Shown piece after piece: positions 14,800 through 15,872 of a stretch of DNA of 64,000 nt (position 1 is its first letter; each line of letters starts with the position of its first letter). The translations under genes were made by a program, and so were the position numbers. The notes under the pieces are model-generated. The model saw only the letters and a program-made list of their open reading frames with translations. It did no database searches and was not told where the DNA came from. The stretch lies in contig CANQVF010000001.1 of NCBI GenBank assembly GCA_947627185.1, forward strand, positions 35,404 through 99,403. The letters are read 5' to 3'. Origin of the DNA: an uncultured Clostridia bacterium (GTDB lineage: Bacteria; Bacillota; Clostridia; TANB77; CAG-508).

Positions 14800-14934
14800 T
14801 ATAATAAAAACACTTGATTTTTATAATAAAATATAGTAAAATAGTTTTGCTAAATTACCATAGACTTAGTTTAAAGAAAAAACCTACTTTATACTCAGTT
14901 TGTGGCAAATAAAATAAATAGGAGGTTAATGATT

Positions 14935-15198
14935 ATGACTAAAGAAAGAAAACAAGAAATTATTAATACTTATAAAAGAGAAGAGAACGATACAGGTTCT
15001 CCAGAAGTACAAATTGCACTTTTATCAGAAAGAATTTCAGAATTAACAGAACATTTAAAGGTTCATAAAAAAGATAATCACTCTAGAAGAGGATTATTAA
15101 AAATGATTGGTAAAAGAAGAAATTTGTTAAATTATTTAGCAAAGAAAGATATCAACAGATATAGAGAAATTGTTAAAAAATTAAATTTAAGAAAATAA
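14935..15198 (+). CDS. rpsO: 30S ribosomal protein S15
   Basis: RBS taggaggt, then ATG at 14935. [62 protein letters not shown], the canonical S15. Confidence 0.95.
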
Positions 15199-15202
15199 TA
15201 AA

Positions 15203-15230
15203 AAGCTCGGATTTGTTCCGAGTTTTTTTT
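15203..15230 (+). terminator. rho-independent terminator after rpsO
   Basis: Hairpin ctcgga-tttgt-tccgag followed by T8. Confidence 0.8.
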
Positions 15231-15295
15231 ATTTGAATAATTTATAAATTATTTATTTAAACTATTTAATTAATCATTATTAATTATTGTTTACT

Positions 15296-15365
15296 ATTTA
15301 TTATTTATTAATTATTATTTATTAATTATTATTTATTAATTATTATTTATTATTTATTATTTATC
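15296..15365. repeat. AT-only tandem repeat, about 17-bp unit (ttatttattaattatta), about 3.5 copies
   Basis: Direct visual periodicity in the rpsO-pnp spacer. Confidence 0.7.
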
Positions 15366-15366
15366 T

Positions 15367-15525
15367 TTATTATAACTGTTTAATTATTAGTTTTTTAGTA
15401 ACGCGTAAGCGACCAACCGAAGCGAAAGCGAAGGGCGAATGGAGCAATCTTCATTTATTTTTTTATAAAAAGGAAGATTGCGACACCAAGTTACTATTAA
15501 ACTAATAATTAAACAGTTATAATAA
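15367..15525. repeat. 27-bp perfect inverted repeat flanking a GC-rich about 87-nt core
   Basis: Left arm 15367-15393 ttattataactgtttaattattagttt. Right arm 15499-15525 is its exact reverse complement. Nested agtaac (15397) / gttact (15490). Inner hairpin gcaatcttc (15445) / gaagattgc (15473). Core about 55% GC against a 27% background. Confidence 0.85.
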
Positions 15526-15526
15526 T

Positions 15527-15600
15527 AAGAAGAATATAAAAATTAATTTAAAGAATATAAAAATTAATTTAAAGAATATAAAAATTAATTTAAAGATTAT
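15527..15600. repeat. 22-bp tandem direct repeat (aagaatataaaaattaatttaa), 3 copies, with degenerate copies extending to about 15650
   Basis: Three perfect 22-bp copies starting 15527, 15549, 15571, then decayed units. Confidence 0.8.
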
Positions 15601-15872
15601 AATAATTAACTTGAAGAATATAAAAATTAATTTTTAAATTATAATAATAATAATTTAAAAATTATTATAGTAATAGAAATAAAATTAATATTTGGAATTA
15701 TCATAAAATCTAGAAATAAATATTATCTTGATTTTTTTATGTTAATATAGTAAAATATTCATGGTTATTTATTTGAAAGAGTAGCTTGTACAATGTATTA
15801 TTAAATTTAAAATATATTGTAGAGGTTACATTTCAAATAAATAGATAAATTTATTTATAGGAGGAATGTAAA

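Follow-up and report, generated by a model that had tools for sequence, protein, structure and literature searches.

A dispersed palindromic repeat with a conserved core and interchangeable arms in intergenic DNA of AT-rich gut Clostridia

Analysis of a 64,000-nucleotide stretch of DNA from an uncultured Clostridia bacterium (hereafter the window) resulted in the identification of a palindromic element at positions 15367-15525, in the spacer between rpsO and pnp, which is one copy of an uncatalogued repeat of approximately 155 bp (up to ~190 bp in one subfamily) found in intergenic DNA of AT-rich gut Clostridia. Members of this family have a GC-richer core of ~95 nt, folding as a four-way junction (P1b, H1, H2, and H3), which is closed by an AT-rich stem of 30-36 bp. 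The explanation we favor, with somewhat more confidence than doubt, is that the element is a non-coding, non-autonomous, selfish palindromic DNA, similar in kind to MITEs, REPINs and Correia elements, with arms kept matched by template switching. Only transcription would turn it into a long dsRNA stem.

The window copy is bounded by a perfect 27-bp inverted repeat on the forward strand, in which the 3' arm of the outer long stem (P1a', 15499-15525) is the exact reverse complement of the 5' arm (P1a, 15367-15393); direct comparison thus bore out what an earlier note on this DNA had claimed. A 2-nt T/T mismatch separates these 27 bp from P1b, the junction-proximal stem, in which TAGTAAC (15396-15402) pairs with GTTACTA (15490-15496). 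The same note had seen this extension of the arms as agtaac/gttact, correctly except for its length, which is 7 bp beyond the mismatch rather than 6 bp. The stem totals 34 pairs over 36 positions and encloses a core of 87 nt (15403-15489). That core length had also been given before, along with a GC content of 55% against a 27% background; our measurements were 42.5% for the core (48% in its richest 60 nt, and ~55% in its left half alone by inspection of the sequence) and 24.7% for the window. The element is the longest inverted repeat of the window and the sole one with a long structured spacer. An arm 24-mer occurred exactly twice in the window, where 0.01 occurrences were expected, and the predicted fold of the element reached -62.6 kcal/mol (z = -11.5).

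Within the core, the folds placed a mini-hairpin H1, CGC-GTAA-GCG (15402-15411; CG-NNNN-CG in the common family register), a hairpin H2 with a symmetric purine internal loop, CC-GAA-GC-GAAA-GC-GAA-GG (15417-15434), the junction strand GCGAA (15435-15439), which opens the most conserved stretch GCGAATGGAGCA, the hairpin H3 (15440-15485), and a second junction strand, CCAA (15486-15489), also conserved in the family. All of these are read on the forward strand. H3 consists of TG-GA-GCAATCTTC, a 20-nt AT loop, and GAAGATTGC-GA-CA, and contains a tandem G/A internal loop; its arms GCAATCTTC (15444-15452) and GAAGATTGC (15473-15481) are the nested hairpin with 20-nt spacing that had already been noticed inside the core.

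An exact core 22-mer was found in 11 places, all in one MAG, the rabbit-gut Clostridia assembly CANQLH01, and with 2 diverged copies the examined parts of this MAG hold at least 13. A first metagenome pattern was too strict and gave no match; a degenerate core pattern recovered 4 further copies from human-gut metagenome contigs, and 2 more copies were found in other MAGs. In the sequence examined, our covariance model R1 returned 19 full-length matches at 116-165 bits, beyond which there were one truncated copy and two redundant copies from other assemblies. The window copy matched R1 over its full length (1-155) at 128.4 bits (E = 2e-28). R1 scans revealed no second copy in the window and no match in L007-L016, a set of related loci. 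Taken together, at least five other genomes or metagenome sources contain the family core and fold, with E values of 1e-25 to 1e-37, and the search for copies in relatives, proposed earlier for a MITE-like reading, yielded a dispersed family in several gut Clostridia genomes. Every copy was intergenic and lay beside unrelated housekeeping genes in mixed orientation, with 9 copies in the same and 7 in the opposite direction relative to neighboring genes.

Searches of other resources were negative. At the gathering thresholds of Rfam 15 the window gave one match, a tRNA, and none for the element, and at E values up to 10 the only overlapping matches were weak partial ones to H3, which scored 17-18.5 bits where the thresholds are 56-70. 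Plasmids and phages gave no BLAST match to the core, and viral contigs none to the arm sequence or to two core patterns. A 21-mer from the GCGAA-rich part matched 4 viral contigs of ~50% GC; this was an unrelated short hairpin, CGCCC-GAAGCGAAAGCGAA-GGGCG, which R1 did not score. A literature string search with core motifs returned irrelevant primer matches only.

All copies, the window copy included, were predicted to fold to the same architecture, and the window copy carries the conserved core of the family, GCG..AACCGRAG..GCGAATGGAGCA.TCT.CA..GCGACACCAA. Standard pairs filled 91.7% of the 557 pair cells, and 17 pairs covaried with changes on both sides, a number reached in none of 500 shuffles; pairing registers slid out of phase gave 35-41% pairing only. 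All six modeled P1b pairs and four H3 pairs covary across the family, and the two modeled H1 pairs are invariant in the 18 distinct sequences. The junction is strongly conserved, with GCGA-A (in columns that are invariant in alignments A1 and A2) and CCAA each present in 16 of the 18 distinct sequences, and GA on the 5' side of the H3 internal loop present in all 18. H2 is more variable, its stem being longer by a matched C/G insertion in L031 and reading C-GA-GC-UUU-GC-GA-G in the human-gut copies. The hairpin loops of H1 and H2 also vary (GUAA, CACU, GAAA, GUUA, AUCA, UUU) and are not conserved as GNRA. On the modeled strand, internal-loop positions held 248 purines and 22 pyrimidines. The earlier note had suggested a covariation analysis across related Clostridia pnp leaders; a conserved hairpin of the pnp leader, predicted from five lineages, is a separate structure that is discussed below.

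The sequence of the stem differs between copies and is near-perfectly Watson-Crick paired within each. Arm pairs over the family comprised 572 Watson-Crick, 8 G·T and 2 A·C pairs, and G·U occurred in only 2 of the 557 model pair cells; the neighboring pnp leader hairpin, by contrast, has several conserved G·U pairs. Arms are wholly unrelated between subfamilies, and their outermost 5-9 bp are copy-specific yet paired. Owing to these copy-specific segments we considered whether the element inserts into palindromes or terminator loops already in place, and rejected this at the prmC-whiA site, whose empty allele consists of 21 nt of spacer lacking any palindrome. A 20-nt piece of the window arm matched at 19 of 20 positions once in L046, a related rpsO-pnp locus, as ordinary flank, which beats all 300 shuffles; the match of the L046 arm to flanking DNA of the window or L007 was not significant, leaving one of two arm-to-flank comparisons significant. 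We suggest that arm complementarity would be kept by replication template switching between the arms, and not by selection at the RNA level, and that such switching may sometimes replace the arms and flip the core. Two published studies describe template switching between inverted-repeat arms as homogenizing the arms and inverting the spacer (PMC8604942), and as creating perfect stems in one step and maintaining them (PMC8794818). Inverted repeats maintained in this way are similar to the family in their Watson-Crick-only arms, in the replacement of arms as blocks, and in the flipped core of L046. Template switching is nevertheless a process and not an element family, and it leaves the conservation of the core and the spread to new sites unexplained.

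The rpsO-pnp spacer of the window measures 674 bp (rpsO stop 15198, pnp start 15873), in agreement with the ~670 bp given in the earlier note. The rpsO gene (ribosomal protein S15; 14937-15198, forward strand) was taken from the list of open reading frames, with PF00312 Ribosomal_S15 detected on same-species contigs, and the terminator scan placed an intrinsic terminator (15200-15236, forward strand) directly after it, composed of a 12-pair stem followed by a T run and kept in sequence in L007 and L046. With this terminator upstream, the element would be reachable by read-through transcripts only. L007, whose PNPase is 98% identical, has a 259-bp rpsO-pnp spacer without the element, and global alignment against it revealed ~400 bp of lineage-specific extra DNA in the window (15238-15640, boundaries approximate), made up of a left array, the element and a right array. 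According to TRF, the left AT-only array (15266-15364, T-rich on the forward strand) has a period of 14 (TTAATTATTATTTA) and 7.1 copies, and the right one (15530-15633, A-rich on the forward strand) a period of 21 (AAGAATATAAAAATTAATTTA) and 5.0 copies. The repeats previously read here, of 17 bp on the left and of 22 bp in 3 copies on the right, were not recovered; the decayed copies described after the right array are real and reach about 15669. Left-array copy number differs among contigs with identical PNPase and the right array likewise varies between strains. The arrays are local variable-number tandem repeats, outside the repeat family, and are probably secondary slippage products. They were also considered as an extension of the hairpin, which was rejected because a 429-nt fold paired barely past the 36-position stem.

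Comparison of orthologous sites showed the hairpin to be either complete or missing altogether. At rpsO-pnp, the window lineage has a filled spacer, L007 an empty one, and L046 (PNPase 97% identical) one filled in the inverted orientation, with the same core and unrelated arms; the element was not found in the rpsO-pnp loci of L007, L009, and L011-L016. Similarly, the prmC-whiA spacer is 188 nt long with the element in L024, and 41 nt and 21 nt long without a palindrome in relatives with WhiA 92% and 84% identical (L024 compared with L036-L039). Together with the dispersed family, these filled and empty spacers support the earlier suggestion of a small non-autonomous inserted element. No direct target-site duplication was found, the flanks of independent copies being inverted-complementary and not direct repeats; filled and empty prmC-whiA alleles showed no duplication either, although a short self-complementary one such as TA may have escaped these comparisons. 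A transposase and a parent insertion sequence were not found, the parent having been sought in plasmids, phages and viral contigs, and mobility is consequently deduced from presence/absence and the dispersal of copies only. Two candidate mobilizers were rejected. Rpn-family nuclease fragments adjoin just 2 of the 19 copies, which we provisionally treat as coincidence, and a 489-aa gene beside the group B copies, considered as a transposase, encodes a pseudopilin-like secreted protein.

Classical bacterial MITEs such as bcr1 in the Bacillus cereus group are small, non-coding, dispersed and intergenic, with a stable fold and filled and empty sites; their defining marks are direct duplications of the target and terminal inverted repeats derived from a parent insertion sequence. 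The family is like them in its small non-coding size, its multiple dispersed copies (at least 13 in the CANQLH01 parts, and four further sources), its presence or absence at the orthologous rpsO-pnp and prmC-whiA sites, its stable predicted fold and its intergenic location. However, conserved terminal inverted repeats are missing, since arms are unrelated between subfamilies, and no parent was found. The MITE-like label of the earlier note accordingly holds for dispersed copies and filled/empty sites and fails for conserved arms and target-site duplication; the element is not a textbook MITE. Integron attC sites have a conserved structure with variable stem sequence and function strand-specifically as a folded single strand, carrying RYYYAAC / GTTRRRY boxes at the outer stem base, a variable center, and positions in cassette arrays beside an integrase. 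The element likewise conserves structure and not stem sequence, but here the center is conserved, copies are solitary with no integrase nearby, and GTAAC/GTTAC sits innermost in the stem and is not kept by subfamilies C and D or by the human-gut copies. Retron ncRNA, IS200-IS605 omega-RNA and IS110 bridge RNA, which call for a reverse transcriptase, TnpB/IscB or IS110 recombinase gene next door, were rejected as candidates, the neighbors being housekeeping genes, with only two copies near Rpn-family fragments. Scans also lent no support to suspected resemblances to a 23S rRNA segment, hairpin or hammerhead ribozyme cores, group II intron domain V, or IS608 TTAC cleavage sites.

The inverted repeats of Correia elements are conserved in sequence between copies and have a TA duplication at their flanks. 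In our family, on the other hand, arm sequence varies from copy to copy and a duplication was not found, and there is no sequence similarity to Correia elements, whose host belongs to another phylum. One study describes the Correia elements of Neisseria (CREE/NEMIS) as dispersed, intergenic, non-coding repeats of ~100-150 bp in which an inverted repeat surrounds a conserved core and whose presence varies between close genomes, all of which resembles the family described here (PMC2649163). The same study reports that Correia transcripts form long hairpins which RNase III can bind or cut, with side effects on neighboring genes (PMC2649163). REPINs, which are paired REPs mobilized by RAYT transposases, are replicated as a hairpin thought to act single-stranded (PMC3116915, PMC3337134). 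They are similar to the element as non-autonomous, hairpin-forming intergenic repeats persisting in lineages, and for the element too the single-stranded hairpin would be the unit of replication, but in REPINs the arms (the REPs) are conserved and the spacer is variable, whereas in the element the core is conserved and the arms are variable.

Under the explanation we favor, that of a selfish palindromic element, spread would occur in trans via a single-stranded fold-back of the purine-rich strand, acted upon by a putative mobilizing enzyme. Several observations count against it. Besides the failure to find a transposase, a parent insertion sequence or a target-site duplication, just one copy was seen in the 64 kb of the window. 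Two genomes whose WhiA proteins are only 76% identical both have a member in the prmC-whiA spacer; the elements are 69.5% and the flanking genes 72-78% identical, and H3 and P1b show compensatory changes. Judged from sequence comparison, this pattern and the strong conservation of the core look like long-term functional selection, of which a purely selfish element has no need. Functional RNAs, too, typically have conserved purine internal loops and loops of GNNA type. Furthermore, we infer template switching itself, with the one significant arm-to-flank comparison of two. A bolder form of the selfish explanation, which we put forward as speculation and consider unlikely, is that of a new kind of hairpin mobile element in which the ~95-nt junction core is the sole heritable identity, recognized as folded ssDNA by a putative trans-acting enzyme, with arms rebuilt from one flank. 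The rebuilding would take place by templated inverted copying at each insertion, flip or repair of the element, and would explain why arms are copy-specific yet perfect, why target duplications are missing, and why the sister lineage has a flipped core between new arms.

The chief alternative is that the family represents structured ncRNA genes or cis-acting RNA modules, in which the junction core is functional and the stem is under selection for an RNA fold; we consider this doubtful but a serious contender, and regard in the same doubtful light the specific examples of a protein-binding or ribozyme-like domain for the core. The 17 covarying pairs, the invariance of the junction strands and of the tandem G/A internal loops, and the strong purine asymmetry of one strand all speak for this reading, as does the possible orthologous retention at prmC-whiA with its compensatory changes. 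In addition, about half of the copies are co-oriented with, and 10-25 nt from, the upstream gene (L024, L029, L031, L032 and the window), and such copies would therefore be transcribed. Weighing on the other side, G·U pairs are nearly absent from the family (2 in 557 cells), although the pnp leader hairpin has several, and close lineages differ by the exchange of entire arms around a near-identical core. The mixed orientation relative to genes (9 same, 7 opposite), the lack of a conserved promoter or terminator accompanying the element, H1 and H2 loops that are not GNRA-conserved, and the lack of an Rfam match even at E = 10 also argue against it.

We consider it improbable that the element is instead a host-domesticated punctuation signal in DNA or transcripts, placed by a mobile family and then retained, and equally improbable that it acts as a bidirectional terminator or insulator, a stabilizer of mRNA 3' ends, or a site for a nucleoid or cruciform-binding protein. 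Such a role would suit the several copies that lie between convergent genes or directly after the highly expressed rplL, rpsO and dnaJ, and some copies are flanked by A/T runs like those of bidirectional terminators (L029, AAAAAAAGCAATAT...ATATTGCTTTTT; L034). Comparable effects, namely promoters, IHF binding and RNase III, are ascribed to Neisseria Correia elements (PMC2649163). Nevertheless, most copies, the window copy included, lack a T run past the stem, the window copy is already preceded by a good rpsO terminator, and a sister lineage manages without the element.

The earlier note had likened the element to the RNase III site of the E. coli pnp leader that mediates autoregulation of PNPase, a role which we now regard as very improbable and which comparative sequence data already contradict. 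The two do have in common a long double-stranded stem between rpsO and pnp, and RNase III would cleave a transcript containing the predicted 34-pair stem. Long dsRNA stems of this order are RNase III substrates once transcribed. The E. coli site, however, lies inside the transcribed leader as part of the autoregulation, whereas the element, which extends to 15525, lies past the rpsO terminator and upstream of a predicted pnp promoter (TTGATT-17-TAAAAT, 15728-15756, forward strand, from the promoter scan). The hexamers of this promoter are the same as those of the rpsO promoter at 14814-14842, and in L007, L046, and more distant relatives its sequence is unchanged or almost so. The element thus falls upstream of a conserved promoter and outside the conserved leader, and it cannot be taken for the pnp leader since L007, at 98% PNPase identity, lacks it; all more distant relatives lack it as well, L046 carries it inverted, and the same element adjoins unrelated genes elsewhere. 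In its place, RNAalifold on five lineages predicted a hairpin of ~34 pairs including G·U (15766-15843, forward strand) which is distinct from the element, lies within the true leader, and is common to all relatives compared, L007, L046 and distant ones among them. It is this hairpin that fits the E. coli arrangement, and by this modeling it is the real candidate for an RNase III/PNPase autoregulation site. The element would not serve pnp control in any dedicated way; in any read-through transcripts from rpsO, its 34-pair stem may act as an RNase III substrate and exonuclease barrier as a side effect.

Finally, the suggestion that the element is chance or inert repeat debris local to an AT-rich spacer, which would suit the flanking arrays as ordinary, slippage-prone and strain-variable AT minisatellites, has next to nothing left to recommend it and is refuted by the family, whose core and fold recur in other sources as given above.

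These results remove a tempting misannotation, namely the element as the RNase III site of the pnp leader, and indicate the real conserved leader hairpin. A working covariance model now defines this family of structured repeats from AT-rich gut Clostridia, a group that has been little studied; the family breaks metagenome assemblies inside its core and is mistakable for a regulatory RNA. A conserved core joined to interchangeable arms that pair perfectly is an unusual arrangement for a bacterial repeat, and, with the core lying in opposite orientations in sister lineages, it provides a natural system in which to study how template switching shapes and maintains hairpins. If a mobilizing enzyme exists, the conserved core would be its likely recognition site and could be used in a co-occurrence search for it.

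At window positions 15367-15525, in the rpsO-pnp spacer, the 27-bp inverted repeat of the earlier note (15367-15393 / 15499-15525) was verified as perfect. Its extension by agtaac/gttact holds in that pairing resumes, but as 7 bp after two T/T mismatches, in the junction-proximal stem P1b (TAGTAAC, 15396-15402, with GTTACTA, 15490-15496), giving a total of 34 pairs enclosing an 87-nt core in this copy. This is the longest inverted repeat of the whole 64-kb window and its only long-spacer one, the rest being terminator-like with loops of 0-13 nt, and a 24-mer from the arm has exactly two occurrences where chance predicts 0.01. Folded as RNA, the 176-nt region reaches -62.6 kcal/mol (z = -11.5) and the opposite strand -55.9 kcal/mol (z = -10.3), and the proposed nested core hairpin (GCAATCTTC/GAAGATTGC, 20-nt loop) was confirmed. 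Base composition had been overestimated: the core, put at ~55% GC in a 27% GC genome, measures 42.5% over 87 nt (~55% in the left half only, by inspection), and the window measures 24.7%.

Searching relatives for further copies, as that note had suggested, revealed a dispersed family. In a collection of 185,579 species genomes the core 22-mer GCGAAGGGCGAATGGAGCAATC has 11 exact matches, every one of them in the MAG CANQLH01, which represents an uncultured Clostridia bacterium from rabbit gut. Two further, diverged copies emerged when the CANQLH01 loci were searched by BLAST and by pattern, a degenerate core pattern located four in contigs from gut metagenomes (one labelled human gut), and syntenic loci supplied two more members (L040/L041, CANQCU01; L046, CANQGE01). 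The family covariance model R1, built from 16 copies, scored 19 full-length copies at 116-165 bits, and found one copy only in the 64-kb window and no member in empty loci. No Rfam family matches the element, even at E = 10, core BLAST against plasmid and phage collections gave no match, and the core patterns were not found in IMG/VR. A core 21-mer, CGAAGCGAAAGCGAAGGGCGA, occurs in four viral contigs of IMG/VR (L017-L020; ~50% GC, two of them ~5-6 kb long), where it forms a short hairpin (CGCCC-GAAGCGAAAGCGAA-GGGCG) within non-coding DNA that shows strand skew; these were rejected as family members because R1 gives no match, and the likeness is thus limited to a GCGAA-rich mini-hairpin. Three independent metagenome contigs start within the core, directly 5' of GAATGGAGC or at AGTGCGAATGGAGC (L005:1, L006:1, L033:1); short-read assembly apparently fails at one constant position in the repeat, a pattern compatible with multiple copies or with heterogeneous strains and proof of neither.

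Within the rabbit-gut MAG, two copies (L021:852-1370, L023:4056-4556) adjoin ORFs that match Rpn-family recombination-promoting nucleases (TIGR01784) over the C-terminal half only, and a 512-nt repeat is common to both loci. Three paralogous genes (L022, L026:1459-2928, L028), whose DNA is 87-89% identical across ~1.65 kb, encode a 489-aa protein that lacks Pfam matches and resembles prepilins in its N-terminal segment; a family member lies ~12 nt upstream of each gene start, on the opposite strand, and L026 and L028 have a second, diverged member nearby.

Single-sequence folds gave the same structure in every copy. An outermost AT-rich stem of 30-36 bp (P1a) is separated from P1b (6-7 bp) by a short internal loop made up mainly of purines, often GA facing GAU, but TT facing TT in the window copy. 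Inside P1b three hairpins surround a junction: H1 (CG-NNNN-CG), H2 (CC-GRA-GC-loop-GC-GAA-GG) and H3 (UG-GA-GCAAUCUNCA-AU loop-UGNAGAUUGC-GA-CA), with conserved junction strands AYYAA, GCGAA and CCAA. In an alignment fitted to R1, which favours structure, 91.7% of 557 cells pair, against 35-41% when registers are slid, and both partners change in 17 of 32 pairs, a number that 0 of 500 shuffles reach; the independent folds agree nonetheless. Covariation extends to all six pairs of P1b and to four of H3, and in L031 a matched C/G insertion lengthens H2. G·U pairs are nearly missing from all helices (2 of 557 cells), the H3 tandem G/A loop is essentially invariant, and internal-loop positions on the modelled strand hold 248 purines vs 22 pyrimidines; this purine bias is evidence that a single-stranded form of one strand may matter.

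Comparison of orthologous spacers showed what is gained or lost. The CANQLH01 prmC-whiA spacer (188 nt) is filled by a family copy, and in relatives with WhiA 92% and 84% identical it is 41 nt and 21 nt without palindrome; insertion or deletion therefore involves the complete hairpin together with its arms, and no target duplication was seen between filled and empty spacers. A genome with WhiA 76% identical holds a diverged member there, with perfect 32-bp arms and two compensatory pairs in H3; its identity is 69.5%, that of the genes on either side 72-78%. Further relatives, with 75% identity, have no member in this spacer, and the element may either have been kept for long and lost in some lineages or have inserted here more than once. 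In the rpsO-pnp spacer of L046 (PNPase 97% identical), the same core lies on the opposite strand between unrelated arms, with exact blocks of 41, 17 and 22 nt in common with the window. L046 has a single match to the window arm (19/20, better than all 300 shuffles), in ordinary flanking DNA that adjoins its hairpin on the outside; the reciprocal search with the L046 arm was not significant.

Arm sequences are unrelated between subfamilies, and within each copy they are nearly perfect complements (572 Watson-Crick, 8 G·T and 2 A·C pairs over 16 distinct copies). In the human-gut subfamily the inner ~22 bp are common to copies, and the outermost 5-9 bp are copy-specific, paired nonetheless (GCCAT/ATGGC, AGAAA/TTTCT). 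Template switching between the two arms of one inverted repeat is described as homogenising arms and inverting the spacer (PMC8604942) and as creating or maintaining perfect stems in single events (PMC8794818). Such a process would explain the Watson-Crick-only arms, block replacement and flipped core; it leaves core conservation and spread to new sites unexplained.

Taken together, we infer with modest confidence a non-autonomous selfish DNA element that spreads when its purine-rich strand folds back and that depends for mobilisation on a putative trans-acting enzyme, its arms maintained through template switching. A structured ncRNA family is possible but clearly less probable: copies point both ways with respect to neighbouring genes (9 same, 7 opposite) and bring along neither promoter nor terminator, the hairpins differ in their loop sequences, G·U pairs are nearly absent, and whole arms are exchanged with the core nearly unchanged. 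That arm rebuilding from flank DNA is intrinsic to a new transposition mode is rather doubtful in our view; domestication as a punctuation or binding signal appears unlikely.

The pnp promoter (TTGATT-17-TAAAAT, 15728-15756), its hexamers the same as the rpsO promoter's (14814-14842), is common to all relatives and downstream of the element, and a strong rpsO terminator (15200-15236) lies upstream; the element is thus reachable by read-through transcription only. In contigs that encode the identical PNPase (L001-L004), inverted repeat and core are unchanged, and spacers measure 636-683 bp because array copy numbers differ. L007/L008 (PNPase 98% identical) have a 259-bp spacer with rpsO terminator, promoter and leader all kept, without the ~400 bp equivalent to window 15238-15640, and the element is absent from more distant relatives (PNPase 94-95% and 93%). 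The element lies outside the pnp leader and belongs to a repeat family that is inserted as a unit and is dynamic between close lineages. The earlier proposal of an RNase III stem mediating pnp autoregulation is very improbable for an element upstream of the promoter and missing at 98% identity, and there is probably no pnp-specific role at this locus; debris is scarcely credible at all. The counterpart of the E. coli pnp-leader RNase III site would instead be a leader hairpin of ~34 pairs (15766-15843) common to all relatives. Conserved in five lineages, it has invariant G·U pairs as well as one compensatory pair, and is a likely, predicted site of RNase III / PNPase autoregulation. L009/L010 (PNPase 95%) have no rpsO before pnp, two small ORFs (93 and 103 aa, no Pfam hits) lying upstream, and still retain promoter and leader hairpin. 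In PNPase-94% relatives a 69-bp tandem repeat with GC-rich motif GGTACGAGCGAAGCGA closely precedes the ribosome-binding site of pnp (L011:1380-1500, L012:1380-1500; two copies in L011 and L013, three in L012), a separate lineage-specific insertion in the same leader region.

The AT-only arrays beside the element (15242-15364, T-rich; 15530-15669, A-rich) have a left period of 14 (7.1 copies, 15266-15364) and a right period of 21 (5 copies, 15530-15633), not the 17 and 22 first reported. Likely slippage hotspots adjoining the hairpin, they vary in copy number among contigs encoding identical PNPase and could serve as strain markers. If the element is included in read-through transcripts, RNase III would cleave its stem, or the stem would block 3' exonucleases, as PMC2649163 describes for Correia elements in Neisseria. 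By analogy the element would work most like Correia elements, REPINs and MITEs; the MITE-like character first proposed stands for the dispersed insertion unit but not for conserved terminal repeats and target duplication, the traits that define MITEs, and the REPIN pattern is reversed, the core being conserved and the arms variable. We file it among the palindromic intergenic repeats.
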